Assembly: GCA_050331415.1 (NCBI GenBank)
Contig: JBHJGW010000106.1
Span: forward strand, 1-47,840
Source: Opitutales bacterium
Lineage (GTDB): Bacteria > Verrucomicrobiota > Verrucomicrobiia > Opitutales > Cerasicoccaceae
Direction: 5' to 3'
DNA length: 47,840 bases
The position numbers and the translations under genes were made by a program. Shown here in pieces: positions 19,079 to 33,057 of this stretch. A model generated the notes under the pieces. It ran no database searches, was not told the origin of the DNA, and was given only the letters and a program-made list of their open reading frames with translations. Numbering within the stretch: the first letter of the stretch is position 1; every line of letters starts with the position of its first letter.

Positions 19079-22000
19079 ATGACTCAGGGAAAATTAGAGG
19101 GGGGCGCCTATGAGGTCATTCGCAATCGCCTCAATCAGCAGGGGAAAGACTTGCTGGGGCGCCTGCAGGCACTCGATGCCAACCGCAAGGCAGTTTTTGG
19201 CGCGGTCGAGCCCCGGCTACTGACAACCGAGCGCATCCAGACTGCCAATAACTGTATTCCCCGCGGCATGACCGCCCTGCCCGGGGATCGCTTCATCTTC
19301 GGCTACAACGTCCACATTGGCCTCAAAAGCCAGGTCGAGGTCAGTGATGTTTTTTCCCTTTTCCAGTACCATCAGGACGAGCACCACTTCACGCAGGATG
19401 ATCTTTCATTTCTGACCTCCAGCCAGGAATTCGTCCAGGATTTCCAATATCTTTACAAATACTACAAAAAGACGACTTTCGCGAAGTTTATGCGGATGGG
19501 CCCGAACCTGTACATGGCCTTCCGCATCAGTGAGGACATTCGTGACATCAAAGTCTTCAAGTGGCTGCTCAAGGACGACGGGACATTCCAATACCTCGGC
19601 AACCGATTCGACCACGAGTACCAGTTTCCGGAGCAGCACGGCTTCAAGTGGACCCGTGCACACCGCGATATGCAACGCAGCGGTACCCACCCACACATCT
19701 CGATCGAAGACCGGCTTTTTGTGGAGACCGTTGGCGGCGACCTCACGATCAAGATTGAAGACAATACCGATTCTGGCGAAGGGATTTATAGCGAGCCGGT
19801 TAGCTATGCTGACCAGACCCTCGACGACGCCGATATCTACTACGCGGTCGTCGGCAGTCTAATTTTCCTGAAGATCAAGCCTTATCAGGAAAAGCAGACC
19901 CGCTATTTCATCTACAACGAAAAGGTGAAAGATGTGAAGCGCGTCGATTCCATCGAGCACAGCTGCGTCCTGCTTCCGGAAGAGCACGGCGTCATCTTCG
20001 CCGACGGCTTTTACCTGCACAACGGAGACTACAAGCGCTTCGACCCGCGCGAAGAGGCGATGCTCTATGAGCGCACCATCCGCGCGCCGAACGGCGAAGA
20101 CTATCTTTACGTCTTCTATCAGCGTGACCAGGGGGTGTATCAGCTGATGCCCTACAACCTGATCGCTCAGAAGGTCGAGAACCCCATCGAAGCAAATGGC
20201 TATGCACTCTTTGAAAATGGCTCCCTCGCGTACTTCAAAGCACACGACGAAGCCCAAAAGCACCACACCGTCCAAGTTTGGCAGACGCCATTCTCCGCAC
20301 GTGAGATACCAGTTGAAGGGCAGAAGGACAGCTACCTTTTTAAAGTCGGCAACTCGGACATCGTGCGCTGTATGGCCGAGTGCTATGAGATTTACAACCT
20401 GCTGCAACGTGAAGATGCCTACGAGGGCCTGTACCTCGACCTCACCCGCATCGCCACGCGGGTGATCGACAGCTACTTCTGGATCGAGAACGAGGCTGCC
20501 GCCAATCTCAAGGAAGTTCTGTCACAGATTTTGGGCACCGGCCAGGCGGCCATCGACGAGTTCGAAAAGGTCCAGCGCATCCGCAAGGCCACACTTGACC
20601 AGACTCGCCAAGTCCAAACTACCGCCCGCAAGCTCTTTACCGAACTCGACGGAACTCAGCCCGACGACGTTCGCGGCTACGTCGACCGCCTTGCGCGCTT
20701 GCGACGCCTCCGGGGGGAAGTCATTGGACTGAGGGAGCTGCGCTATGTCGACACGAGCCTTTGCGATGAGCTGGAAACGCAGATCGCCGAGCGCTCCGAC
20801 GGGGTCGCCCGGCATACGGTCGAGTTCCTCCTGCAGCCGGAGGCCCTGCAACCCTACCGAGACGCCATCGCTGCGCAGCGCGGCGAAATCGACAGCGCCA
20901 AGACCGCCCAGGAGGCAAAGCAAATTCTGGAGGAACTCGATCAGATCGGTGAGCAGCTCGAGATGCTCATCGAGACTATCTCGAACCTCAAAATCGAAGA
21001 TGCCACCCAGACCACGCGCATCATCGACAGCGTTTCCGAGCTTTTCACCGAACTCAATCAGCTCAAGGGCGCCGCCCGCAATAAGCGGCTCGACCTGATG
21101 CGGGCTGAGGGCGCGGCGCAGTTCCACGCCCAGTTGAAGCTGCTGGAGCAGTCGGTTGCCAACTATCTCGATATCGCCGACACTCCGGAGGCCGTCGACG
21201 AATACCTCACCAAAATGATGGTGCAGCTCGAAGAGCTCGAAGGCACTTACGCCGAGTTCGACGAGTTTATCGAAACCCTCTCGAACAAGCGGGCCGAACT
21301 GTACGACGCCTTCGAAACCAAGAAAGCCGCATTGATGGAAGCGCGGAACCGCCGCGCAACCAAGTTGGTTTCCTCCGCCGAGCGCATTTTAAAGGGCATC
21401 GAAAACCGCGCCCGTTCGATGACGGAGATTGCGGAGATCAACGGTTACTTCGCTGCCGACCTGATGGTCGATAAAACGCGCGACCTTGTCAGCCAGCTCA
21501 AGGAGATCGGAGAGGCGATCAAAGGCGATGATCTCCTGACGCGCCTCAAAACCATTCAGGGTGACGCCATCCGCCAGCTCAAAGATCGACAGGAGCTGTT
21601 CGTCGATGGCGAAAACGTCATTAAATTCGGCAAGCACCGCTTCACCGTCAACACGCAGCCATTGGAGCTGACGACTGTGTTGCGCGAGGGCGAGCTGTTC
21701 TATCACCTATCGGGAACGCAATTTTTCGAGCGCGTCGTCGACGACAGACTGGAGGCGACCCGCGAGGTCTGGGAAATGCAAAGCCCGGCCGAAAATGCGC
21801 AGGTGTATCGCGCCGAATTCCTCGCCTATCAAATGCTCAAGGCCCTCGAAGGCGGGCTCGAGCCGGGGCTGGCCGGTTTCGTGCAGCTCGATGGGGAAGC
21901 GCGCCTGGAGGCCGTCCGCCGTTTCATGGCTCCCCGCTATGCCGATGGGTATACCAAGGGCGTGCACGACGCCGATGCTGAGCGGCTGCTCACCGCGCTG

Positions 22001-25000
22001 GCCAAGATCCATCAGTCCGTCGGCCTCTTGCGCTATTCCCCCGACGCACGCGCCTGCGCCCTCGCCTTTTGGGTCAGCAGTTCCGGAGACAACGGCCTAG
22101 CTGCGCACCTGCGCGAACGCCTCGAAGCCTTTGGCGCGATGCTGCGGGCGTATCCAGAACACAAGACGCAGCGTGTCTACATCAACGAACTGCGCTCCGC
22201 TATCACACGTTTCAATGACGCGCACGGGCTCTTCCCCAACAACCTAGCGAACGAAGCCGCCGAATACCTTTTCTATGAGATCGTCGAGGACGAGCATTTT
22301 TACATCACCCGCGAGAGCGCCAAACTTGCCGACGACTTCAAACACGAGCTTCTCGAACGCCGCTTTCTGGAAAAATTTGATGCCGCTCGGGAGCGGGTGA
22401 AGGGTGACGCCGTCAGCGAATTTCGCATCATCCGCGATTGGCTCGAGGGCCACGCCGCCCACCACAAGCTTCCCCAGGAGCAGCACGAGTTTATTGCCGA
22501 AGCTGCGGCGCACATCCTTCGCGGCGGCGTCGAGCGGCGGCGGATCATCGATGTTCCGATCCAGGTCGACCTCGAAGACTTGCGCGGCGACCACGACAAC
22601 ATCGCCGAAGGCGGCAAGTACCACATGAACTACCTGCACTTTATGGACCGCCTTCGCGCCTTCGAGGCCGGTCCGTTTACGCTTTACCACCAGTTTCAAG
22701 AGCGTAAGCAGGAACTTGTTGAGCAGTTCGCCGAAGAGCTGCGCCTCGGAGAGTTCAAACCGCGCGTGCTCAGTGCATTTGTGCGCAACAAGCTTCTGGA
22801 CACCGTCTATCTGCCGCTGATTGGCGACAACCTCGCCAAGCAGATTGGTGCCGCCGGAGCAGATGCCCGCACCGACCGCATGGGCTTGCTGCTACTGATT
22901 TCGCCGCCAGGCTACGGAAAGACGACGCTAATGGAGTACGTGGCCAATCGCCTCGGCATAACCTTCATGAATGTCAACGGCCCCTCGCTCGGGCACGACG
23001 TCACCTCGCTGGACCCCGGCCAGTGCGCCAACATGGCAGCGCGGCAGGAAGTCGAGAAGATCAACCTCGCTTTCGAGATGGGCGATAACGTGCTCATCTA
23101 CCTCGACGATATCCAGCATACCAACCCGGAGCTGCTCCAGAAGTTTATTTCACTGTGTGACGGCACGCGTCGCATCGAGGGAGTCTACAAAGGCAAGTCC
23201 AAGACCTACGACCTGCGCGGGCGCAAGGTGGCTGTCGTCATGGCGGGTAACCCCTACACGGAAACCGGCGGCAAGTTCCAGATCCCGGATATGCTCGCCA
23301 ACCGCGCCGATACCTACAACCTCGGCGACATTATCGGCGAGAATTCAGACGCCTTCGAGGCCAGCTACATCGAAAACTCGCTCACCTCCAACAGCGTCCT
23401 GTCACGCCTATCGAGCCGTTCCCGCAAGGACGTTTATGCGATCATGCAGATCGCGCGAACGGGCCAGCGAGAGGGCGTCGAATTCGATTCGTCTTTCTCG
23501 ATGGAAGAAGTCAACGAAATGGTCAGCGTCATGAAAAAGCTGATGCGCGTTCGGGACACCATCCTTCGGGTCAACCTGATGTATGTGCGCAGCGCCGCCC
23601 AGGCCGACGACTATCGCACCGAGCCGCCCTTCAAGCTCCAGGGCTCCTACCGCAATATGAACCGGCTCGCCGAGAAGGTGCTGCCGATCATGACCGACCG
23701 GGAAATCGAACAGCTCATTGATGACCATTATGCTGGTGAGTCGCAGACCCTGACTGACGGCGCCGAAGCCAACTTGCTGAAGTTCAAGGAACTCGAAGGC
23801 AAACTGACGCCTGACGAGACCGAACGGTGGGAAGAAATCAAAAAGCGCTTCAAGCGGCAAAAGGCGCTCGGAGGCGCGGGTGATACCGACCCCGTCAACC
23901 GCGTTGTTGCGCAACTCGCCGACTTCAATAATGGCCTTGCCGAACTTGGCGATACCCTAAATGAGGGCACCAAAACTTACGGGGCCACCATGGCAGAAGC
24001 CCTTGCTGGCTTACGCGAGGCGCTTATGGAGGGCTCCCGGAGCCAGCAGCATACCTTGGCCGAAGCACTCGATTCCCTCAGCGGTTCCCTGATGGCCGGC
24101 TCGCAGCGGACGGGCGAAAGCCTCGCCGGGCTTGTCGAAAGCCTGCGCGAAACGATGGCGGCCGAAGCCGCGCGAGGGCGCGAAGGTCAGGCCGAACTGT
24201 CCGCCCGACTCGACGTCATCGCCGAGCGATGGCTGCAACATTCCACAGAAACCGCTTCCGCCCAAAACCTCGCCAGCGAGCGTAACCTTTCGGCTATTAC
24301 GCCGATCCTCTCGCAAATGGCAGAAGGGCTTGCGGCCACCAGCCAGGCACATCGCGAATCGTCGGTACAGACCGCCGAGGCGATTACGCCCCTGCTCAAC
24401 CGCTTGGTCGACAAGCTCGATGCCGCAAGCGATGCCCAGCGCGAAGCGGCGGCGCAAACGGTCGAAGCGCTGGTCCCTTTACTCGGGCGCGTTGCCGACA
24501 ACCTTTCGACGTCGAGCGAGGCACAGCGAGAGGGCGCGCAAGCAAGTGCGGAACGCGCAGGAAAGTTTCTTAGTACGATCGCCGATTCCATTCGCGAAGG
24601 CCAGCTCGCTGCAGCCGAGCAGACCAGCGGCGTCCTGGGAATGATGACACCGCTCCTCGGCAACATCTCAAACCAGCTCGCCCGCATTGCGGAAACCGGA
24701 GCCGCAGGGGGCCGGCAGTCAGAGACCATGGAGCAAATTCTGGCAACCCTTGCACGCGCCGAAACCGAGCAAACGAAAGCGGTTCAAGCTTGGGCGGAAG
24801 ACATGGCCCAGCGCGACAGCGCTCCAGAAGCCCGAACGGCTCCCCTTCCCATGCCGGCGCAGGAAGCCACAGCAGCCCACGCAAGTGGTGGCGCATTGAA
24901 GCTCGACACTCGCACTGAAGCTCTACTGCAGAGCATCCTGATCGCCTTCCACCACCTGTTTCGCAAAACGGGGATCGAGCGACCGCAAGTTTTTACCAGC

Positions 25001-25015
25001 GACGAAACGGAATAG
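19079..25015 (+). CDS. Giant multidomain protein (1978 aa): N-terminal beta-rich domain, extended coiled coils, central AAA+ ATPase (AAA_5/MoxR/dynein-like), C-terminal ~29-aa tandem repeats and an acidic tail
   Basis: Single uninterrupted ORF of 5937 nt. Walker A LLLISPPGYGKTTL (22901-22927). Walker B VLIYLDDIQH (23090-23119). Sensor-1 VVMAGNPY. Antisense ORFs inside are low-complexity. Confidence 0.85.
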   Translation: MTQGKLEGGAYEVIRNRLNQQGKDLLGRLQALDANRKAVFGAVEPRLLTTERIQTANNCIPRGMTALPGDRFIFGYNVHIGLKSQVEVSDVFSLFQYHQDEHHFTQDDLSFLTSSQEFVQDFQYLYKYYKKTTFAKFMRMGPNLYMAFRISEDIRDIKVFKWLLKDDGTFQYLGNRFDHEYQFPEQHGFKWTRAHRDMQRSGTHPHISIEDRLFVETVGGDLTIKIEDNTDSGEGIYSEPVSYADQTLDDADIYYAVVGSLIFLKIKPYQEKQTRYFIYNEKVKDVKRVDSIEHSCVLLPEEHGVIFADGFYLHNGDYKRFDPREEAMLYERTIRAPNGEDYLYVFYQRDQGVYQLMPYNLIAQKVENPIEANGYALFENGSLAYFKAHDEAQKHHTVQVWQTPFSAREIPVEGQKDSYLFKVGNSDIVRCMAECYEIYNLLQREDAYEGLYLDLTRIATRVIDSYFWIENEAAANLKEVLSQILGTGQAAIDEFEKVQRIRKATLDQTRQVQTTARKLFTELDGTQPDDVRGYVDRLARLRRLRGEVIGLRELRYVDTSLCDELETQIAERSDGVARHTVEFLLQPEALQPYRDAIAAQRGEIDSAKTAQEAKQILEELDQIGEQLEMLIETISNLKIEDATQTTRIIDSVSELFTELNQLKGAARNKRLDLMRAEGAAQFHAQLKLLEQSVANYLDIADTPEAVDEYLTKMMVQLEELEGTYAEFDEFIETLSNKRAELYDAFETKKAALMEARNRRATKLVSSAERILKGIENRARSMTEIAEINGYFAADLMVDKTRDLVSQLKEIGEAIKGDDLLTRLKTIQGDAIRQLKDRQELFVDGENVIKFGKHRFTVNTQPLELTTVLREGELFYHLSGTQFFERVVDDRLEATREVWEMQSPAENAQVYRAEFLAYQMLKALEGGLEPGLAGFVQLDGEARLEAVRRFMAPRYADGYTKGVHDADAERLLTALAKIHQSVGLLRYSPDARACALAFWVSSSGDNGLAAHLRERLEAFGAMLRAYPEHKTQRVYINELRSAITRFNDAHGLFPNNLANEAAEYLFYEIVEDEHFYITRESAKLADDFKHELLERRFLEKFDAARERVKGDAVSEFRIIRDWLEGHAAHHKLPQEQHEFIAEAAAHILRGGVERRRIIDVPIQVDLEDLRGDHDNIAEGGKYHMNYLHFMDRLRAFEAGPFTLYHQFQERKQELVEQFAEELRLGEFKPRVLSAFVRNKLLDTVYLPLIGDNLAKQIGAAGADARTDRMGLLLLISPPGYGKTTLMEYVANRLGITFMNVNGPSLGHDVTSLDPGQCANMAARQEVEKINLAFEMGDNVLIYLDDIQHTNPELLQKFISLCDGTRRIEGVYKGKSKTYDLRGRKVAVVMAGNPYTETGGKFQIPDMLANRADTYNLGDIIGENSDAFEASYIENSLTSNSVLSRLSSRSRKDVYAIMQIARTGQREGVEFDSSFSMEEVNEMVSVMKKLMRVRDTILRVNLMYVRSAAQADDYRTEPPFKLQGSYRNMNRLAEKVLPIMTDREIEQLIDDHYAGESQTLTDGAEANLLKFKELEGKLTPDETERWEEIKKRFKRQKALGGAGDTDPVNRVVAQLADFNNGLAELGDTLNEGTKTYGATMAEALAGLREALMEGSRSQQHTLAEALDSLSGSLMAGSQRTGESLAGLVESLRETMAAEAARGREGQAELSARLDVIAERWLQHSTETASAQNLASERNLSAITPILSQMAEGLAATSQAHRESSVQTAEAITPLLNRLVDKLDAASDAQREAAAQTVEALVPLLGRVADNLSTSSEAQREGAQASAERAGKFLSTIADSIREGQLAAAEQTSGVLGMMTPLLGNISNQLARIAETGAAGGRQSETMEQILATLARAETEQTKAVQAWAEDMAQRDSAPEARTAPLPMPAQEATAAHASGGALKLDTRTEALLQSILIAFHHLFRKTGIERPQVFTSDETE

Positions 25016-25103: not shown

Positions 25104-25664
25104 CTATTCGCTTTTGCGGTAAATGCCGGACGCATTGACGACCAGGTTCTCCGGAGTCGAAATCGTGTCAACAGTTCCGGTTACTACGACGTGGTCGAGT
25201 TCCTGAAGGCCGCCAACTCCGCGCAGCGACCCTTGCAGTGGCAACCCTTCGGCGTCGACGAGCTGCACGCTGGCACGGCCCTTAGTGACCTTCTCCGGAT
25301 CCTCGCAACAGGCGTCCCAAGGCGTTGCGCAATGGTCATCGTCGCCCATCTCGTTGCAGAACATAATGCTTTCATCCGCCAGGACCAGGGTGGCGAAGTT
25401 TTCACCGAAGGGATTCATCGTTGCGCCGATTTGCCCTGACACGACGATGAGCTCGCCGGGTTCGGCGCTGGCGCGCGCAGCTTCCACATTGACTGCGCCC
25501 TCGGGCTCGCTTTCCAGCAGGTACATGCTGACCGGGCTTTCCGAAGTCTCGGGGGAGACGTCGCTGGCGGTCCCTTTCGAAGCTGCATTATCGCCGCAAC
25601 CCGCAAGAAATACGGCCAGCGCCGAGACAGCAGCCGTGGTGGTTTGATGGATACATTTATTCAT
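25104..25664 (-). CDS. Cys-rich lipoprotein (186 aa), last gene of the ABC exporter operon
   Basis: Lipobox LAGC after a signal peptide. Cys/His cluster CNEMGDDDHCATPWDACCEDPE. Confidence 0.65.
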   Translation of the reverse strand: MNKCIHQTTTAAVSALAVFLAGCGDNAASKGTASDVSPETSESPVSMYLLESEPEGAVNVEAARASAEPGELIVVSGQIGATMNPFGENFATLVLADESIMFCNEMGDDDHCATPWDACCEDPEKVTKGRASVQLVDAEGLPLQGSLRGVGGLQELDHVVVTGTVDTISTPENLVVNASGIYRKSE

Positions 25665-25704
25665 AACAGGCTATTGTTTTGAGACATTTTGGGGAGGTAA
25701 AAGT

Positions 25705-26856
25705 TCAGGCAGAGCGCAGCGCAACCGGCAGTGGCGCCCGCAAGCATCGCAGAGCGGGAGGAATGGCACCGATGACGCCGAGCCCAAAACCGGTTACCAG
25801 GCCTAGGGTGATCGTATCCGGCGTCAGCAACAGGCGAAAAGTTCCCATGGAGAAATTGACGGTCGTGCCTTCGAGCAAGAACACCGCGAGTGAGGCGGCA
25901 GCCAGCGTGCCCGCCAGCGTTGCCAGCAGACTCTCCTGCAGCAGAGAAAGAAAAATCGCGCCGCGCGAGAAACCCACGGCCTGCAGCGTAGCGATTTCGC
26001 GGATACGGGAAGCAAACGCCGCGTAAAGCAGATTCATGCCGCCGAAGGCCGCGCCAATTCCGACAAGGATCGCGGTCAGCCATGTCATTCCGCGAATCGG
26101 GCCGTAGAAATGCGCCAGCTTTGCGTAGTAATCGGACTCCCGCAGCGCAACGAGCTCGAGGTCGAGCCGCTGACTGGCAAACAGCTCGGCATGCGCAAAT
26201 CCCGATTCGTCTCCCATTCGAAGGACAACTGCGGACAAATTTTCGCGCTGCGTCAGGGTCATCAGGTCGCTGCGCGTGAACCAGACTTCAGACTCCATGA
26301 CAGTGCCAGGGGCGTCGAACACACCCGCGACGGTTAGCGTCTGACCTTCGAAGGCAAGCTCGCTGCCCGGAGTCAAAGCGGAGGCTGGTCTGCCCAGCGA
26401 GCGGTGCGCAAGCCGTCCGACAAGCACCTCGCCCGGGCCGGGATACCCGCCCTCGATAATGCGCACCTCGCGGTGCACTTCGAACGCCGCGGGCGTTACG
26501 CCCCGCAACAGTGCTTGAGAATCGCTGTCGTCGGGAAAGGTCAACGCGCCCATGTATTGAATTTCTCCTGACACCGCGGGCACCCCGGCCCGGCGCTCGA
26601 TACCCCGAATCCCCGCAGTGGCCAGGGTCTCGGTCTGCACAGGGATCTCGCTGCGCTCGACACTCTCCTCGGAGCCTGCCCCTAGGAGGATGACGTTTCG
26701 CGGTGAGCCGGTGGCCTGCAACACGCGCTCCATGCCGTCATTGAACGCCGAAGCAGCAAAGACGAGAAAGACCACCAGAGCGGCACCACCGATCTTTTGG
26801 ATCAGCTGCCCCGGCGCTCGAACCAGGTTGCGAGTTGCGTAGGAAAACGGCAGCAT
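25705..26856 (-). CDS. ABC transporter permease, FtsX/MacB-like
   Basis: FtsX-type topology with a large periplasmic loop. C-terminal helices LATLQAVGFSRGAIFLSLLQE. Confidence 0.8.
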   Translation of the reverse strand: MLPFSYATRNLVRAPGQLIQKIGGAALVVFLVFAASAFNDGMERVLQATGSPRNVILLGAGSEESVERSEIPVQTETLATAGIRGIERRAGVPAVSGEIQYMGALTFPDDSDSQALLRGVTPAAFEVHREVRIIEGGYPGPGEVLVGRLAHRSLGRPASALTPGSELAFEGQTLTVAGVFDAPGTVMESEVWFTRSDLMTLTQRENLSAVVLRMGDESGFAHAELFASQRLDLELVALRESDYYAKLAHFYGPIRGMTWLTAILVGIGAAFGGMNLLYAAFASRIREIATLQAVGFSRGAIFLSLLQESLLATLAGTLAAASLAVFLLEGTTVNFSMGTFRLLLTPDTITLGLVTGFGLGVIGAIPPALRCLRAPLPVALRSA

Positions 26857-26860
26857 GACA

Positions 26861-28015
26861 CTAAGCCCCGCGCAGGGAGCTAACAATGGGTTTGCGGGCG
26901 GCGATCAGGGCGGGCCAGATGGAGGCGACGACCCCCAGTGCAAGCGCCACCAGCAAGCCGTAGGCGACAACCGTCCAGCTTGGCGAGAGCGCTAGCGTCA
27001 GGCCTTCGTTGCCCAAGGTGAAGCGCTTGAGGTGGAAGAAAAGCCCGGCGGAAAGACAGCCGATCAGGCCGCCGGCGAGACCGAGCAGCGCGCCTTCCAA
27101 AATCATCAACCAGCCGATGGACCAGCGGGAAAAACCGATTGTCTGGTAAACCGCGCTTTCTTTGATCCGCGAGCGCGCCGCCAGCAGGAGCGCGTTGGCG
27201 ACCAGCCCCAGCACCGCAAGTACCGCCCCGAGCCCGAGCCAACGGGTGAAGCCGACCAGCTCGATCATTTCACTCGCAGTCTGGGCGAAGAAGGCCTTCT
27301 CGGGGCGGGTGTTTGTCGGAGCCTGATCTGCGGCGAAAAGGTCATCTATGCGCTCGGCCACGGGTTCGAGATCGTCAGGGCTCTCCACTCGAACATTGAA
27401 CTGCGTGACGACCCCGAGACCGACGCGGGAGGCCTGCTGCAGAAACGGAAGGTGCACGTATGCGACATTGTTGTCCTGGGGATTTGGCGACGTAATGATC
27501 CCCGCAACCCACACCCTGACGCCGACAGCCTCAAATTGATCGCCCGGCTCCAAACCCCGCCGCTGCGCAAAATGCTTACCGACGAGCGCCGCATCGCTGC
27601 GGGATTGCCATGACTCGTAAGAGCCTGTCACTACTTCAAGCTCGGGGTTGTACGAGCGAAGGGCGCCAGTTGGGACGCCCCGGAAGGTGATGACGTCAAG
27701 GCTCGCCCCGCAGTTGTTCACCGTGATCTGAATCGGCAGTGCCTCGACGACGCCGTCGATCCGCTCGATCTCACCGAGGTAGTGCTCCGGCAGCCGTGAG
27801 GTCATCGGGCAAAATCGGTTTTCGCGGTAAACGACCAGGGTGTTGTCCTGCGCGCTTGTCTCGGTGACCGTTTTCAGGGACCGCTGCATCGTTTCCACCG
27901 AGGCATAAAGGAACATGCCGACGGCAACGCCGATCACGGTCAGGAGGCTGCGGACGCGGTGCCGCGTCAACTGCTTGAGGGCCAAGCCACCGAGGTGTGC
28001 AAATGGTCGCATCAT
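26861..28015 (-). CDS. ABC transporter permease, FtsX/MacB-like (second copy)
   Basis: Paralogue of the adjacent permease (AVYQTIGFSRWSIGWLMILE). 4-bp overlap with the ATPase gene. Confidence 0.8.
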   Translation of the reverse strand: MMRPFAHLGGLALKQLTRHRVRSLLTVIGVAVGMFLYASVETMQRSLKTVTETSAQDNTLVVYRENRFCPMTSRLPEHYLGEIERIDGVVEALPIQITVNNCGASLDVITFRGVPTGALRSYNPELEVVTGSYESWQSRSDAALVGKHFAQRRGLEPGDQFEAVGVRVWVAGIITSPNPQDNNVAYVHLPFLQQASRVGLGVVTQFNVRVESPDDLEPVAERIDDLFAADQAPTNTRPEKAFFAQTASEMIELVGFTRWLGLGAVLAVLGLVANALLLAARSRIKESAVYQTIGFSRWSIGWLMILEGALLGLAGGLIGCLSAGLFFHLKRFTLGNEGLTLALSPSWTVVAYGLLVALALGVVASIWPALIAARKPIVSSLRGA

Positions 28016-28722
28016 GCCACGACCTCCTCTTTGGTGCCGCTCTCGACCAGTTGTCCCTTTTCGAGGTGCAGGGTCCGGGCAGCGGCCGACGCGGCAAGTG
28101 CGTCGTGAGTCACCATGACGATCGTTTTGCCGTAATCCGTAGCCAAGGCCTTGAGGAGGTTCAAAATCGCCGTACCGGACTCCCGGTCGAGGTCGCCGGT
28201 CGGCTCGTCAGCAACCAGCAACCCAGGGTTGGCAACGATCGCCCGCGCAATCGCCACACGCTGCTCCTGGCCACCAGAAAGCTCGGTCGGCCGGTGCTCG
28301 GAGCGGTCCGCGAGACCGACAAGCTCGAGGGCCTCCGTCACGCGCCGACGGCGTTCGCGACGGGTTAGAGATTTGTCCAGCAGGAGCGGCAGCTCCACAT
28401 TCTCGAAGGCCGTCAGAATCGGCACAAGGTGGTACAGCTGGAAGATGTAGCCGCAGTGCCGGGAACGCCAGCGAGTCAGTTCCGCCCGCGACAGCCTGGC
28501 GAGGTCGTGCCCGTCCACGTGTAGCTCACCGGCGGTAGGTTGGTCGATGCCCGCGATCAAGTTGAGCAGCGTGGTCTTGCCCGAACCCGAGGGGCCCATC
28601 AGCGCAAGGAATTCGCCGCGGGGGACATCGAGATCGAGCTGTTCGAGGGGCGTAACGGTCGTGCGCCCTTTTTGATAGGATTTGGTCAGTCCGCGGCAGC
28701 GGATAAAGCTTTCGGTTTCCAT
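28012..28722 (-). CDS. ABC transporter ATP-binding protein (MacB/LolD-type)
   Basis: Walker [13 protein letters not shown]. Signature [14 protein letters not shown]. Walker [14 protein letters not shown]-loop VMVTHD. Confidence 0.9.
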
Positions 28723-28740
28723 TCCGGTTGCAGCAGAAGT

Positions 28741-30198
28741 TCAGGTCTCCGGCATCGAGCGAGCTTCGACACGCTCGCCGCTTTCCAGGCCGGCAGGTGG
28801 GTTTACGACGACTCGCTCGCCGGGCTTCAGCCCTTCGGCAACCCGCGTATAGCCTTCCCGAGACTCGGGGGCCAAGGTGATCGCCTTTCGGCGAACGCGC
28901 TCGCCGTCCTGGCCGATTACCCAAACCTCGGCGGACGTACCGGAGCGGCCCAGGAGCGCACTTTCAGGGACGTACAGGCGCACCCGGGTCATCGCCGCGG
29001 GACGCTCCGCTGCGCGGTCGCCGCCACCCGCGGCCAGGAATTCCGCTCGGCAGAGCATCTCCGGGCGCAGACGGTCGTCGGGGTCGAGCAGCTCGACCTT
29101 GGCCTGCAGGGTGTTGCGCTGCAGGTCGGCCTCGCCGGTGATACGGGTTACGCGACCCTGCAGCTCGACGTCGGGAAGAAAATTGGTTCGCAGCCTTACG
29201 GCCTGCCCGAGCCGCAACTGCGCAGCCTCGGCCAGCGGCACATCGATCCGGGCTTGCAGGCTCTCCGGGTCATAAAGATAGGCAATGGCTGCGGAATCGT
29301 GATTGTCCGGACCTAACATGCGCTGCTGGCCAGGTAAGGCGAAAAGCCGCATTACGCGACCCTCAATCGGCGAGGTGATCCGGTGCCGCCGGAGAGCAAG
29401 CTCCCGACGTGCCACCTCGGTTTCCGCGAGGGCGACCCCCGCCTCCGCTTCAGCATAGCGGCTCTGGAGCTGCTGAATCTGGGCCTCCGTCTCCGCCACC
29501 TCCGACTGCAACGCAGCAACCTCGGCCTCCTGGGTGACAGCGGCCTGACGGCTCTGGTCGATATCAATCTGTGGAACGGCCTCGCGCCCTGCCCCTGCGA
29601 GGCGGTCGGCGGCGTCGCGCCGGTAATCGCGCATTGCCGATGCCCCTCGAATCCGTTCGGCAAGGGTCGTCAGTTTAGCGCGCGCAGCGGCAACGGCCGC
29701 CTCGTTGGCATTGACCGTCGCCCTCGCTGCCTGAAGTGATGCGCGGGCTGTCTGGAGATCCAGCCGGGCGTCGTCGTCGATCAGGGTCGCCAGAACCACG
29801 CCTTTTTCAACGGTTTCGCCTTCGAGGACAAAAACCTCGTCGACGACACCGGAAACCAGTGTCGAGACCTTGGTCGGCAGGGGGTCGGGTTCGATCCACC
29901 CGGTTGCCTGAAATAAAACCGGGGCCTGGAAAGGGTCGGAAGCGCCGACCGAGGCGCCTTCCCGCAGATCGATAGGCTCGGCGCCCGGGTCCTCGGGCAA
30001 GGTGACTACATTGGCTATCTGGACCGGCCGCGCAGGGAGCAGGCGCTCGCCAAACAGCAGCGCCATGAGCAAGGTAAAGCCAAGGATCAGGCCTACCGGG
30101 ATACTGAGGGAAAGTAATCGTCCGCGGTTGCGTTGCGGCGGAGGACTACCGGAAGGGCCAGGGTTGCCCAGAAGGGAATTCAACTGTTCTGAAGCCAT
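28741..30198 (-). CDS. HlyD-family membrane fusion protein (periplasmic adaptor)
   Basis: N-terminal TM anchor, long coiled-coil hairpin (AALQSEVAETEAQIQQLQSRYAEAEAGVALAE), beta-barrel C-terminus. First gene of the exporter operon. Confidence 0.8.
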   Translation of the reverse strand: MASEQLNSLLGNPGPSGSPPPQRNRGRLLSLSIPVGLILGFTLLMALLFGERLLPARPVQIANVVTLPEDPGAEPIDLREGASVGASDPFQAPVLFQATGWIEPDPLPTKVSTLVSGVVDEVFVLEGETVEKGVVLATLIDDDARLDLQTARASLQAARATVNANEAAVAAARAKLTTLAERIRGASAMRDYRRDAADRLAGAGREAVPQIDIDQSRQAAVTQEAEVAALQSEVAETEAQIQQLQSRYAEAEAGVALAETEVARRELALRRHRITSPIEGRVMRLFALPGQQRMLGPDNHDSAAIAYLYDPESLQARIDVPLAEAAQLRLGQAVRLRTNFLPDVELQGRVTRITGEADLQRNTLQAKVELLDPDDRLRPEMLCRAEFLAAGGGDRAAERPAAMTRVRLYVPESALLGRSGTSAEVWVIGQDGERVRRKAITLAPESREGYTRVAEGLKPGERVVVNPPAGLESGERVEARSMPET

Positions 30199-30320
30199 GC
30201 ACAATTCAAGCTAGATGGTCGGGAATCCATGTAACGGTCGCACTGCGACAGTACACGGGAACGGCCGCGAAACGCCGCGACCTCATGAGGCCTCACACGC
30301 GAGGCCGTCAAACCACCAGC

Positions 30321-30716
30321 TCAGTTGAGCCGCTTCTGAAGCAACGCGAGGCGTTGCGTGACCGGCAAGACCGGGGGGTCGTGCCCACGGGGAACCCGCT
30401 GCCGCATTTGGTCGGCCAGCGAGAAGGTCTCCGGACGAGAAGCTGCGACCGCGGAAACCGGAAGCGCAATCGCGTCAACGCCCGTCCGCGACATAACGCC
30501 CAAAACCTCTGGAGACTTTTCCGCCTGTTCGCAAAGGCACGTCGGCGCCGAATTACTACCTTCTTCCGATTGGCAGCAGTTATCCCGCGCGCTCACTTGG
30601 GTCGTGCAGCAGTCATCCATCGACCCCCGAGCCAACTGAGCCGCTGCGCAAACGCGAAACGGGCCACTGAGTGACAAAAGGAAGATGATGACCAGTGAGC
30701 GGAGCATCGACATCAA
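30321..30716 (-). CDS. Small Cys-rich exported protein (131 aa) upstream of the exporter operon
   Basis: Signal peptide MLRSLVIIFLLSLSGPFRVCAAA. Cys cluster DDCCTTQVSARDNCCQSEEGSNSAPTCLCEQ. Shares the motif D-x-C-C-[EQ]-[DS]-x-E with the lipoprotein at 25104-25664. Overlapped by two plus-strand ORFs, so coding status is moderate. Confidence 0.4.
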   Translation of the reverse strand: MMSMLRSLVIIFLLSLSGPFRVCAAAQLARGSMDDCCTTQVSARDNCCQSEEGSNSAPTCLCEQAEKSPEVLGVMSRTGVDAIALPVSAVAASRPETFSLADQMRQRVPRGHDPPVLPVTQRLALLQKRLN

Positions 30717-30781
30717 GTAGAACGGGAACGAGCCCCGGCGTCAACCCTGCGGGACACCGAGGCCGAAACCAACCTTACTGT

Positions 30782-31045
30782 TTAGTAAATCGTGCACGCC
30801 GAGAGTTCCCTCACCACGACGGGTTCAATCGCGATAGACTCTCCGCCAATCCAAAAGGGAGCACCAGAGGTTCGCTTACCGGGTTTGCCCATTTCGACAT
30901 TGGCGCGATTGGATTCCGATACTACCAACCGACCCTCCTCATCGAGACCCCTCTTCGAAGGGACCCATTTTTCAGCTGACGTAGGAACCTCTGGTCGAAA
31001 AATTCCGACCCCGCCAGCGGCGTTTGAGCCGGAAATGATTTTCAC
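30782..31045 (-). pseudogene. metH: Degenerate remnant of the MetH pterin-binding domain, in frame directly after the stop of the Hcy-domain ORF
   Basis: Translation immediately downstream of the stop (…VGIFRPEVPTSAEKW…PFWIGGESIAIEPVVV…) weakly matches E. coli MetH residues about 360-440 (…VGERTNVTGSAKF…LIAGEPDIARVPIMID…). The ORF then ends; the remaining ~900 codons of metH are absent. Confidence 0.4.
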
Positions 31046-32134
31046 CTACCCAAGGACCAGTGGCTCGAGGCCCGAAAGCCGCAAACGCGAGGGTTCATCG
31101 GCATATTTGCGCGCCGGGTATTGGCTGAGCACCTCGCGGATTTTCTGAATATGGCCCGGTGTCGTCCCGCAGCAGCCACCAACCACATTCAAAAGCCCGT
31201 CAGAAGCGAAGCCTTCGAGTGCTTTCGCGGTGTCAGGCGGGCCTTCGGGAAAGCCGGTTGGCGAGAGCGGGTCAGGCAGGCCTGCATTCGGATAGCAGGA
31301 AACCGCGCAAGGGCACAGCCGGGCAAGCTCCTCGATATAGGGGCGCATCAGGTCGGCGCCGAGTGCGCAGTTCATACCGACTGAGAGCGGTTTGGCGTGG
31401 CGTACGCTATTCCAGAAAGCCTCGGTGGTCTGCCCGCTGAGGGTGCGACCAGACTGGTCCGTAATCGTGCCGCTGATCATCACGGGCAGACGCTCGTCGC
31501 GTCCTTCGAAAAACTCTTCCACTGCAAAGATCGCAGCTTTCGCGTTCAGGGTATCGAAAATCGTCTCAATGAGGATCACGTCCACTCCACCCTGAACGAG
31601 GCTGCGCACCTGCTGCAGATACGCGTTCTTGACCTGATCAAAGGTGACTTCGCGCTTACCGGGGTCATTGACATCCCGGCTCATCGACAGCGTCCGATTG
31701 AGCGGCCCGATGGCTCCAGCCACCCACTTTTCGCCCAAACCGTCTGCCTCGGCATCATCGGCCTTCTGGCGAGCCAGCTTGGCAGCTTCGACGTTGAGCT
31801 CGTCGACGATTTCTTCGAGCCCGTAGTCAGCCTGGGAGATGGTCGTCGAGTTGAAGGTGTCCGTCTCGATCAGGTCGCTTCCGGCCTCCAGAAACGCGCG
31901 GTGGATTTCAGCGATGACATCTGGCTTGGTCAGCACCAGCAGGTCGTTGTTGCCTTTGAGGTCCGCCTTGTCCCAATCCTTAAACCGGTCGCCGCGATAA
32001 TCGGCTTCGGTGAGCTTTTTCTGCTGCACCATCGTGCCCATGGCACCATCGAGGTAAACAATGCGTTCGCCGAGCAGCTTGCGCAAGCGCTCGCCCTTTG
32101 CGGTGTACGGCTTTTTTCCGGAATGCGATGACAT
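31046..32134 (-). CDS. metH: Homocysteine S-methyltransferase (Hcy-binding) domain protein; the N-terminal domain of cobalamin-dependent methionine synthase MetH, truncated at the domain boundary
   Basis: Near-collinear with E. coli MetH residues 1-353: LDGAMGT, LNAKAAIFAV, MISGTITDQSGRTLSGQTTEAFWNS, GMNCALG, YPNAGLP, GGCCGTTP, RLSGLEPL. Stop six codons after RLSGLEPL. Confidence 0.8.
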   Translation of the reverse strand: MSSHSGKKPYTAKGERLRKLLGERIVYLDGAMGTMVQQKKLTEADYRGDRFKDWDKADLKGNNDLLVLTKPDVIAEIHRAFLEAGSDLIETDTFNSTTISQADYGLEEIVDELNVEAAKLARQKADDAEADGLGEKWVAGAIGPLNRTLSMSRDVNDPGKREVTFDQVKNAYLQQVRSLVQGGVDVILIETIFDTLNAKAAIFAVEEFFEGRDERLPVMISGTITDQSGRTLSGQTTEAFWNSVRHAKPLSVGMNCALGADLMRPYIEELARLCPCAVSCYPNAGLPDPLSPTGFPEGPPDTAKALEGFASDGLLNVVGGCCGTTPGHIQKIREVLSQYPARKYADEPSRLRLSGLEPLVLG

Positions 32135-32252
32135 ACCTATCAACATATCCGGATGAGTTGTTCTGTCGACAAAAATCTTTCGAACGCTGTTCGCCGCTTC
32201 TTTTCCTGCCGTGTCGGCTTTGAGGGGCGGTTCTACGCGCTGTTGGCATCTA

Positions 32253-32283
32253 CGAAAAACGGCGCCCTAGGAGGACGCCGTGC
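32253..32283 (-). terminator. Intrinsic terminator downstream of the RRM gene
   Basis: On the minus-sense transcript, hairpin ACGGCGTCC-uccua-GGGCGCCGU followed by UUUUU. Confidence 0.5.
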
Positions 32284-32355
32284 GTGGCAAGCCCTAAAGC
32301 GCCCGGCCGAGAATGGGCGGGCACACGGGCGCTGCATCAAAGGCGGCAAAACCGA

Positions 32356-32850
32356 CTAATCGTCGTCGCGGCGCATGGGGCTGCGACGGTCCCGACCGGT
32401 CTGACCACGCTTCGGGCCCTGTTGTCGGGGACGGGAAATGTCACCTTCGCCGAAATCACGAGGCGGGGGGCGATCACCAAAATCCCGGCGCGGCGGGCCA
32501 CCGGGGCCGTCGCGGCGCGGCGGGCGGTCACCAAAGTCGCGACGAGGCGGCCGGTCGCCGAAATCACGGCGTGGCGGGCGATCGCCAAAGCTTTTGCGGG
32601 GTTTGAATTCGCGCTCTCTGGCCGCATTGACCTTGAGCGGGCGACCGCCGAAATCGGCGCCGTTCAGGTTTTCAATCGCGTTTTCCGCTTCGCCGTCGTC
32701 GGGCATGGTTACAAAACCAAAGCCCTTGCTGCGACCGGTCTCGCGGTCCATGATGATGGTGGCTTTCGTGACGCTTCCAAATTCAGCGAAAACATCCGCC
32801 AATTCATTGTCTTCCGTCTCGTAAGGCAGATTGCCAACGTAGATGTCCAT
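32356..32850 (-). CDS. RRM-type RNA-binding protein with C-terminal DFGDRPPRR tandem repeats
   Basis: RNP2 IYVGNL and RNP1 KGFGFVTM. Four to five repeats of FGDRPPRRD, encoded by roughly 27-bp DNA repeats. Confidence 0.9.
   Translation of the reverse strand: MDIYVGNLPYETEDNELADVFAEFGSVTKATIIMDRETGRSKGFGFVTMPDDGEAENAIENLNGADFGGRPLKVNAAREREFKPRKSFGDRPPRRDFGDRPPRRDFGDRPPRRDGPGGPPRRDFGDRPPPRDFGEGDISRPRQQGPKRGQTGRDRRSPMRRDDD
32437..32604. repeat. Tandem ~27-bp coding repeats (DFGDRPPRR units) inside the RRM gene
   Basis: Repeated gtcacc/gtcgcc-aaa(g/a)tc-(a/g)cg-(a/g)cg-(a/g)ggcgg units. Multiple spurious overlapping ORFs arise here. Confidence 0.8.
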
Positions 32851-33057
32851 TTAACGTGTCTTGTCCTAATCTATGAATCAATGATGCCGGTGGTCGTATT
32901 CAGTGCAGAGGGGTCGGCATCGAGTCGCACGCTGCGCTGTCCCCGGTTGACCGGTGCCTGTAAAGACACACGGCCCAGGATACAGTTTGTAGCATGCTCG
33001 GAGATTTTACCGATGGCAAGGCGATTGCGCTCGCCAAAGCAAAGAATTTTCCTAACT

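Follow-up and report, generated by a model that had tools for sequence, protein, structure and literature searches.

When a gene for cobalamin-dependent methionine synthase (MetH) ends at the first inter-domain linker of the enzyme, is it a decaying remnant or a complete gene? The question is raised by an open reading frame (ORF) at 31046..32146 on the reverse strand of contig JBHJGW010000106.1 from an Opitutales bacterium (assembly GCA_050331415.1), of which a stretch of 47,840 nt, hereafter the window, was analyzed. The ORF encodes a protein matching the homocysteine (Hcy)-binding domain of MetH. A sequence-only reading of the locus had left two explanations side by side: a decaying metH with a degenerate remnant downstream, or a retained standalone Hcy domain, possibly with a split MetH elsewhere in the genome. 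The second proved essentially right and can be stated more sharply. The ORF is very probably a complete, functional gene for the Hcy-binding subunit of a two-part cobalamin-dependent methionine synthase, that is, the first part of the documented split MetH. The two-part enzyme itself is known; the novelty is confined to one Opitutales clade, in which the two genes are unlinked.

The Hcy gene and its protein

Counted from its first ATG, the ORF has 366 codons and ends with the stop codon TAG. The NCBI annotation places the start at Met5 and gives a protein of 362 amino acids, entered in the protein database (P0001) as 'homocysteine S-methyltransferase family protein [Opitutales bacterium]'. Its sole Pfam domain is PF02574 (residues 32-340 of 366, E = 1.2e-91). 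Collinearity with the N-terminal Hcy domain of MetH, which had been read from the sequence alone, was borne out by all comparisons: residues 16-365 align with positions 7-354 of 1234 in the NCBIfam methionine synthase model PRK09490 (520 bits), positions 3-336 of 1182 in TIGR02082 align with the protein at 452 bits, and the best solved-structure matches are to human MetH (4CCZ and 9SSP; query residues 20-366, E = 7e-107). The cut-offs set for full-length MetH, 1011 bits for TIGR02082 and 1497 bits for PRK09490, are not reached. The zinc motifs NCALG and GGCCG align with those of human MetH (gmnCalga/glnCalga and vggCCgt/vggCCgs), and the triad of zinc-ligand cysteines, Cys260, Cys325 and Cys326, is intact; we take these residues to be the equivalents of Cys247, Cys310 and Cys311 in E. 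coli MetH. Guanine-cytosine (GC) content at codon positions 1/2/3 is 0.64/0.43/0.71, which is typical for genes of the window.

A PF02574 protein on its own might also be a free-standing homocysteine methyltransferase that is no longer paired with the C-terminal half of MetH and draws on another methyl donor, such as S-methylmethionine or S-adenosylmethionine (AdoMet) in the manner of MmuM, betaine in the manner of BHMT, or another corrinoid protein, on the model of roseobacter MtgE with MtgC/MtgD. We consider this unlikely. The protein reaches only 102.7 bits with the MmuM model PRK09485 (cut-off 215) and 123.1 bits with the BHMT model PRK07534 (cut-off 338), and is far closer to MetH, with 65-69% identity to the Hcy domains of Opitutales MetH, both fused and split. 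By these comparisons, its closest kin are evidently the MetH Hcy domains, not MmuM or BHMT.

The C-terminus reads ...RLRLSGLEPLVLG, followed by TAG. In alignment it coincides with the C-termini of Hcy subunits from split pairs of adjacent genes and with the linker in fused MetH, which supports the earlier placement of the end at the Hcy/pterin linker; the distance that had been given, six codons after RLSGLEPL, has to be corrected to three (RLSGLEPLVLG, then the stop). The pterin, B12 and reactivation domains are missing, as had been noted: tblastn with full-length Opitutales MetH gave no other match in the 47.8 kb window.

The gene end and the DNA downstream

The ORF stops where full-length MetH goes on, and an 87-codon open frame follows directly. 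Both observations favor a recently truncated, decaying metH pseudogene, its C-terminal part lost, perhaps through insertion of the exporter gene block that lies downstream, and a remnant left behind. The sequence-only reading had described the next ~88 in-frame codons as weakly resembling the start of the pterin domain. No such resemblance could be recovered. A profile hidden Markov model (HMM), built from 11 full-length MetH proteins and run with all heuristic filters off on the six frames of 30650-31100, found no match other than the terminal RLRLSGLEPLVL of the true ORF, so that the six-frame comparison with MetH suggested earlier gives no remnant. The Smith-Waterman score of the 87-codon frame against the pterin region of Opitutales MetH was 29, compared with 29.2 +/- 4.8 for 500 shuffles. 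Searches with phmmer gave only noise against all PDB chains, MetH included (E >= 0.4; TRIM71, PTHrP), and no match at E <= 0.001 in a set of 1.84 billion representative proteins. The frame also lacks F-x-x-x-GERTNVTGS, the conserved sequence at the start of the pterin module.

The composition of the frame is not coding-like either. Its GC content at the three codon positions is 0.57/0.51/0.55 vs about 0.64/0.44/0.73 in real genes here, its codon-usage score is -0.001 vs 0.26-0.46 for ten real genes, and gene callers placed no gene at 30782..31045 in two independent assemblies. Dozens of spurious ORFs as long as this one appear in the ORF list of the window, and an 87-codon open frame is unremarkable in DNA of ~60% GC. 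The next gene, the first of the exporter operon, lies 329 bp past the Hcy stop. The frame is best read as ordinary non-coding intergenic spacer, neither a MetH relic nor a gene.

The position of the stop recurs well beyond the window. A scan of species-representative genomes yielded 54 loci, for each of which the frame was extended; about half are fused MetH of ~1230-1300 amino acids, and the others stop within a few codons of the window's stop position. Among the nearest 120 protein-database relatives, most are PF02574-only proteins of 350-370 amino acids, dozens of which end 2-4 residues from RLSGLEPL. The gene end is likewise conserved in the nine relatives (69-84% identity) that were read in DNA. 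Six loci (L056, L001, L058, L002, L068 and L069), with 72-84% identity to the window's Hcy gene, make up its clade; their proteins end, for example, in RLSGLEPL followed by VLAK, VLA or NVTS, or in NLG after RLSGLEAL. Within this clade, the proportion of nonsynonymous differences (pN) is 0.12-0.18, that of synonymous differences (pS) is about 0.7, which is saturated, and the ratio of nonsynonymous to synonymous rates (dN/dS) is 0.07-0.11. Judged from these values, the Hcy gene is under strong purifying selection and is not decaying.

A pseudogene is highly improbable on this evidence. The same end is found in relatives whose synonymous sites are saturated, and in distant phyla; a terminator-like hairpin lies past the stop; and because the relatives that have this end have entirely different neighbors, the end predates the neighborhood seen in the window. 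The proposal that the exporter block was inserted here and broke metH fails on the same point: the end occurs amid other neighbors, no flanking repeats were found around the block, and its GC content is only slightly raised (0.62-0.66 vs ~0.60 around it). What the sequence-only reading had itself named as speaking against decay was observed in both respects, since the downstream frame has no similarity to MetH and standalone Hcy proteins of this length occur widely in relatives. Within what sequence data can show, conservation and selection refute the pseudogene reading.

The window is a contig of a metagenome-assembled genome (MAG), and frameshift errors can, as the authors of GapMind point out, underlie adjacent splits (PMC7311316), so a false stop, a frameshift or a chimeric join cutting a fused metH was also weighed. 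Such an artefact is barely credible here. Two independent Logan assemblies, of SRR6462999 and SRR6462997, encode the same protein with the same stop, and the flanks agree as well (L055, from SRR6462999, has 99.92% DNA identity to the window over 3727 bp). There is no MetH-like sequence downstream in any frame, and the stop is common to all relatives.

Split MetH in other lineages and the probably unlinked partner gene

A tblastn search with a full-length Opitutales MetH (L004) retrieved loci in which the Hcy ORF is followed, 18-130 nt on, by a second ORF of ~870-900 amino acids that covers L004 residues ~354-1261. Such adjacent pairs were found in L003 (Verrucomicrobiia), L006, L007 and L009 (Spartobacteria/Chthoniobacter), L011 (an alphaproteobacterium), L013 (Bacteroidota) and L020, as well as in more than ten Acidobacteriaceae. 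This split occurs widely in Verrucomicrobiota, Acidobacteriota and Bacteroidota, mostly in the form of adjacent genes. The second halves begin with M-x-x-x-A-A-Q-Q-F-x-x-x-GERTNVTGS, matching the continuation of the fused proteins past ...GLEPFNIVGDKASF; because they start where the fused proteins continue past the linker, the cut is a clean one at the inter-domain linker. In a neighbor-joining tree of Hcy domains without support values, for which the Opitutales proteins P0001-P0031 and P0130-P0215 were considered, fused and split forms interleave in Opitutales/Puniceicoccales, a hint that fission or re-fusion took place at this linker several times independently. The genetic evidence on two-part MetH comes from other organisms (PMC7857596, PMC7311316). 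In Burkholderia phytofirmans, BPHYT_RS02310 is the protein with the S-methyltransferase domain and BPHYT_RS02305 the one with the pterin, B12 and reactivation domains, and such splits were judged genuine in the GapMind paper since they recur in related genomes (PMC7311316).

In the window's clade the arrangement is different. The window and all six clade members with readable contigs have the Hcy gene on its own, among neighbors that are different each time: a gene for a protein with an RNA recognition motif (RRM) upstream and the spacer and exporter operon downstream in the window, DJ-1/PfpI in L056, a PP2C-type regulator in L001, glycine-cleavage genes and a sulfatase in L058, a GDSL lipase and GH77 in L068, and RsmG (GidB) in L002 and L069, the latter with TatD as well. 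In the synteny comparison, the window's Hcy gene shared no neighbor with any relative, and for this reason the ancestral locus cannot be reconstructed.

The missing half of the enzyme was found elsewhere in sister genomes. In GCA_036788355.1, the Hcy gene (L001; 81% identity to that of the window) lies on DAIQNO010000068, and a second half of 914 amino acids with the pterin, B12-cap, B12 and reactivation domains (P0136) is encoded on DAIQNO010000084, where its gene is flanked by one for a peroxiredoxin and one for AIPR, with no Hcy sequence close by. In GCA_964443255.1, the Hcy gene (P0008, 72%) is on CAYUCI010000046 and the second half (P0185, 908 amino acids) on CAYUCI010000150. Sample SRR28093312 holds both an Hcy protein (P0004, 78%) and a second half of 899 amino acids (P0129), the gene for which has unrelated flanking genes. 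P0136, P0129, P0135 and P0185 share 71-78% identity with one another and 60-69% with all other second halves, and this group mirrors the clade of solitary Hcy genes. The simplest reading is that the two genes encode one enzyme and have become unlinked. Because they are not adjacent in the clade, the partner gene of the window organism should lie elsewhere in its genome, outside the contig.

Several points weigh against this assignment. The window organism's own second half is absent from the window by tblastn and by Pfam scans of 34 of its ORFs, the protein database yielded no second half with above 76% identity to P0136, and two large protein searches with contig look-ups returned none from SRR6462999 or SRR6462997. 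We infer its presence from the sister genomes, and the MAG that contains the window may be incomplete. The assignment of two contigs to the same MAG is made by binning, a procedure open to error. The non-covalent association of the two polypeptides, which would take place at the site of the Hcy/pterin linker of the fused enzyme, is likewise a deduction, and the unlinked arrangement leaves room for an Hcy subunit that may have other partners.

These points bear on the free-standing methyltransferase introduced above. The absence of a partner from the data for the window organism agrees with it, as does a solitary Hcy gene with apparently its own promoter and terminator and with neighbors that differ from species to species; in roseobacters, moreover, an unlinked Hcy subunit uses corrinoid and pterin subunits with a further role in glycine betaine demethylation (PMC12478193). 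Against it, two sister MAGs keep a second half with all four domains intact, which would serve no purpose if there were no Hcy module, and a fused MetH was seen from neither of them. Pfam scans also detected no MtgB- or MtgC-like genes in the window.

Two side observations concern the 3' end of the gene in relatives. In GCA_964443255.1 (the 72% relative; L069:2520-2660 and L070:1080-1220), an imperfect direct repeat of ~57 nt directly past the Hcy stop copies the last ~30 nt of the gene and its 3' flank, so that the frame reads ...KLSGLEPLSR, stop, AFLFCWSLVTALSATG, RLSGLEPLSC... This could be the footprint of a gene-moving rearrangement or a small tandem duplication; no repeat of this type was found in the window. 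In L060 and L061 (Logan DRR227395 and DRR453247; Hcy gene P0011, 71%), both loci end 35 nt past the Hcy stop. These ends may reflect an assembly break, possibly at a repeat or variable junction, where a second half would be expected.

How the proposed split MetH would work can be outlined from established MetH biochemistry. The Hcy protein would fold as the Hcy barrel of MetH with zinc held by Cys260, Cys325 and Cys326, activate homocysteine as the thiolate, and take the methyl group from methylcob(III)alamin. This cofactor would be carried by the separate protein of ~900 amino acids, with pterin-binding, B12-cap, B12-binding and AdoMet-reactivation modules, which would then re-methylate its cob(I)alamin from 5-methyl-tetrahydrofolate. 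Goulding, Postigo and Matthews reportedly found in 1997 that isolated fragments of E. coli MetH catalyze their half-reactions. A further idea, decidedly unlikely in our estimation, is that the Hcy subunit has become an independent module in this clade, transcribed separately, and serves as a common methyl acceptor for several corrinoid proteins, like MtgE, beyond the classical C-terminal half of MetH. If so, methionine synthesis would be coupled to the demethylation of other substrates, and the repeated relocation of the gene would be a sign that joint translation or regulation with a single fixed partner was no longer needed.

For annotation, the label of truncated metH pseudogene should be avoided for solitary genes encoding 'homocysteine S-methyltransferase family' proteins of ~360 amino acids with their end at RLSGLEPL, and B12-dependent methionine synthesis should not be scored absent before a partner of ~900 amino acids has been sought genome-wide. 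The predicted methionine auxotrophy and B12 dependence of Opitutales MAGs are affected. The unlinked arrangement implies that the Hcy and pterin barrels can meet without a covalent linker or operon-level coupling, and adds modestly to the knowledge of split MetH.

Features of the locus and comparison with known systems

The features around the Hcy gene are collected in the table.

Table. Positions of the Hcy gene and of surrounding features in the window
Feature	Position	Strand	Basis or remark
Hcy-subunit gene (PF02574)	31046..32146	-	domain match, codon composition, selection, recurrence in other assemblies
Open frame of 87 codons (supposed remnant)	30782..31045	-	starts directly past the Hcy stop; read as non-coding spacer
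Terminator-like hairpin and UUUUU	31034..31003 and 31002..30998	-	folding: -17.4 kcal/mol, z = -2.26 vs shuffles
Sigma-70-like promoter match	32142..32169	-	9/12 consensus positions; just upstream of the Hcy start codon
Terminator-like hairpin, strong	32281..32259		after the RRM-protein gene, upstream of the promoter match
Operon-like Cys-rich ORF/HlyD/ABC/FtsX block	25104..30716	-	
Cys-rich signal-peptide protein	30321..30716		131 amino acids
RRM protein	32356-32850	-	164 amino acids
Protein with DUF3686	19079-25015	+	1978 amino acids
Small bacterial signal recognition particle (SRP) RNA, RF00169	34420-34517	+	76 bits, E = 2e-15

The hairpin past the Hcy stop begins 12 nt beyond it and consists of 13 base pairs with an internal loop, present in 59% of the ensemble; a simple terminator scan flagged part of the same structure (31017..31005). 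Together with its U tract (30998..31034), it probably marks the natural end of the Hcy transcription unit, a function assigned from its form and position. A fold of the whole 344-nt spacer gave z = -0.85. The promoter prediction is a consensus match only, and as such weak evidence. Because it sits downstream of the strong hairpin at the end of the RRM-protein gene, the order of these signals suggests that the Hcy gene would be transcribed on its own. A permissive Rfam scan of 30200-32900 for an S-adenosylmethionine (SAM) or cobalamin riboswitch near the Hcy gene gave noise only. The SRP RNA is the sole Rfam family that reaches the gathering threshold in the window.

The Cys-rich protein at the start of the exporter block carries a signal peptide and has no Pfam or NCBIfam match. 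The rest of the block encodes an HlyD-family adaptor, an ABC ATPase and two separate permeases of MacB/FtsX type, along with a lipoprotein-like protein of 186 amino acids that has the motif CATPWDACCEDPEK and no family match. On the other side of the Hcy gene, the RRM protein has an N-terminal RRM (PF00076) and a C-terminal tail of FGDRPPRRD repeats. The 1978-amino-acid protein contains DUF3686 ('ATPase involved in DNA repair', E = 2e-179), DUF7902 and an AAA domain, and has a long, repetitive C-terminal region rich in Ala, Glu and Gln.

Among known systems, MmuM/YagD and BHMT resemble the window's protein in having PF02574, a similar size and the same zinc site; they differ in their non-corrinoid methyl donors, and the protein falls below the cut-offs of both models. 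Full-length MetH of E. coli and human (TIGR02082/PRK09490; 4CCZ, 9SSP) has a collinear Hcy domain with the same zinc motifs, whereas about 870-900 residues of it, comprising the pterin, B12 and reactivation domains, are absent from the window's polypeptide. A three-part methionine synthase is described from Phaeobacter (PMC5764234). In the three-part enzyme of Phaeobacter inhibens and Ruegeria pomeroyi (PGA1_c13370 = MtgE, with MtgC and MtgD; PMC5764234, PMC12478193), the PF02574 subunit is also separate; some partners of MtgE are encoded away from it, and its action on a corrinoid protein is in trans. There, however, the pterin and corrinoid modules are themselves separate, and RamA-like and DUF1638 proteins perform the reactivation. 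In the authors' view, this system did not arise by simple separation from classical MetH (PMC5764234, PMC12478193). The partners in the window's relatives are, by contrast, classical four-domain C-terminal parts of MetH. The closest counterpart is the two-part split MetH of Burkholderia (Paraburkholderia) phytofirmans PsJN and Sphingomonas koreensis (PMC7311316, PMC7857596), which has the same fission point, with one protein consisting of the Hcy domain only and the other of the pterin-binding, B12-cap, B12-binding and reactivation domains. The described genes are adjacent, as are those at most of the loci examined, whereas the window's clade has a solitary Hcy gene, with the second half, where found, on another contig; in GapMind's definition of split MetH, adjacency is usual but not required (PMC7311316).

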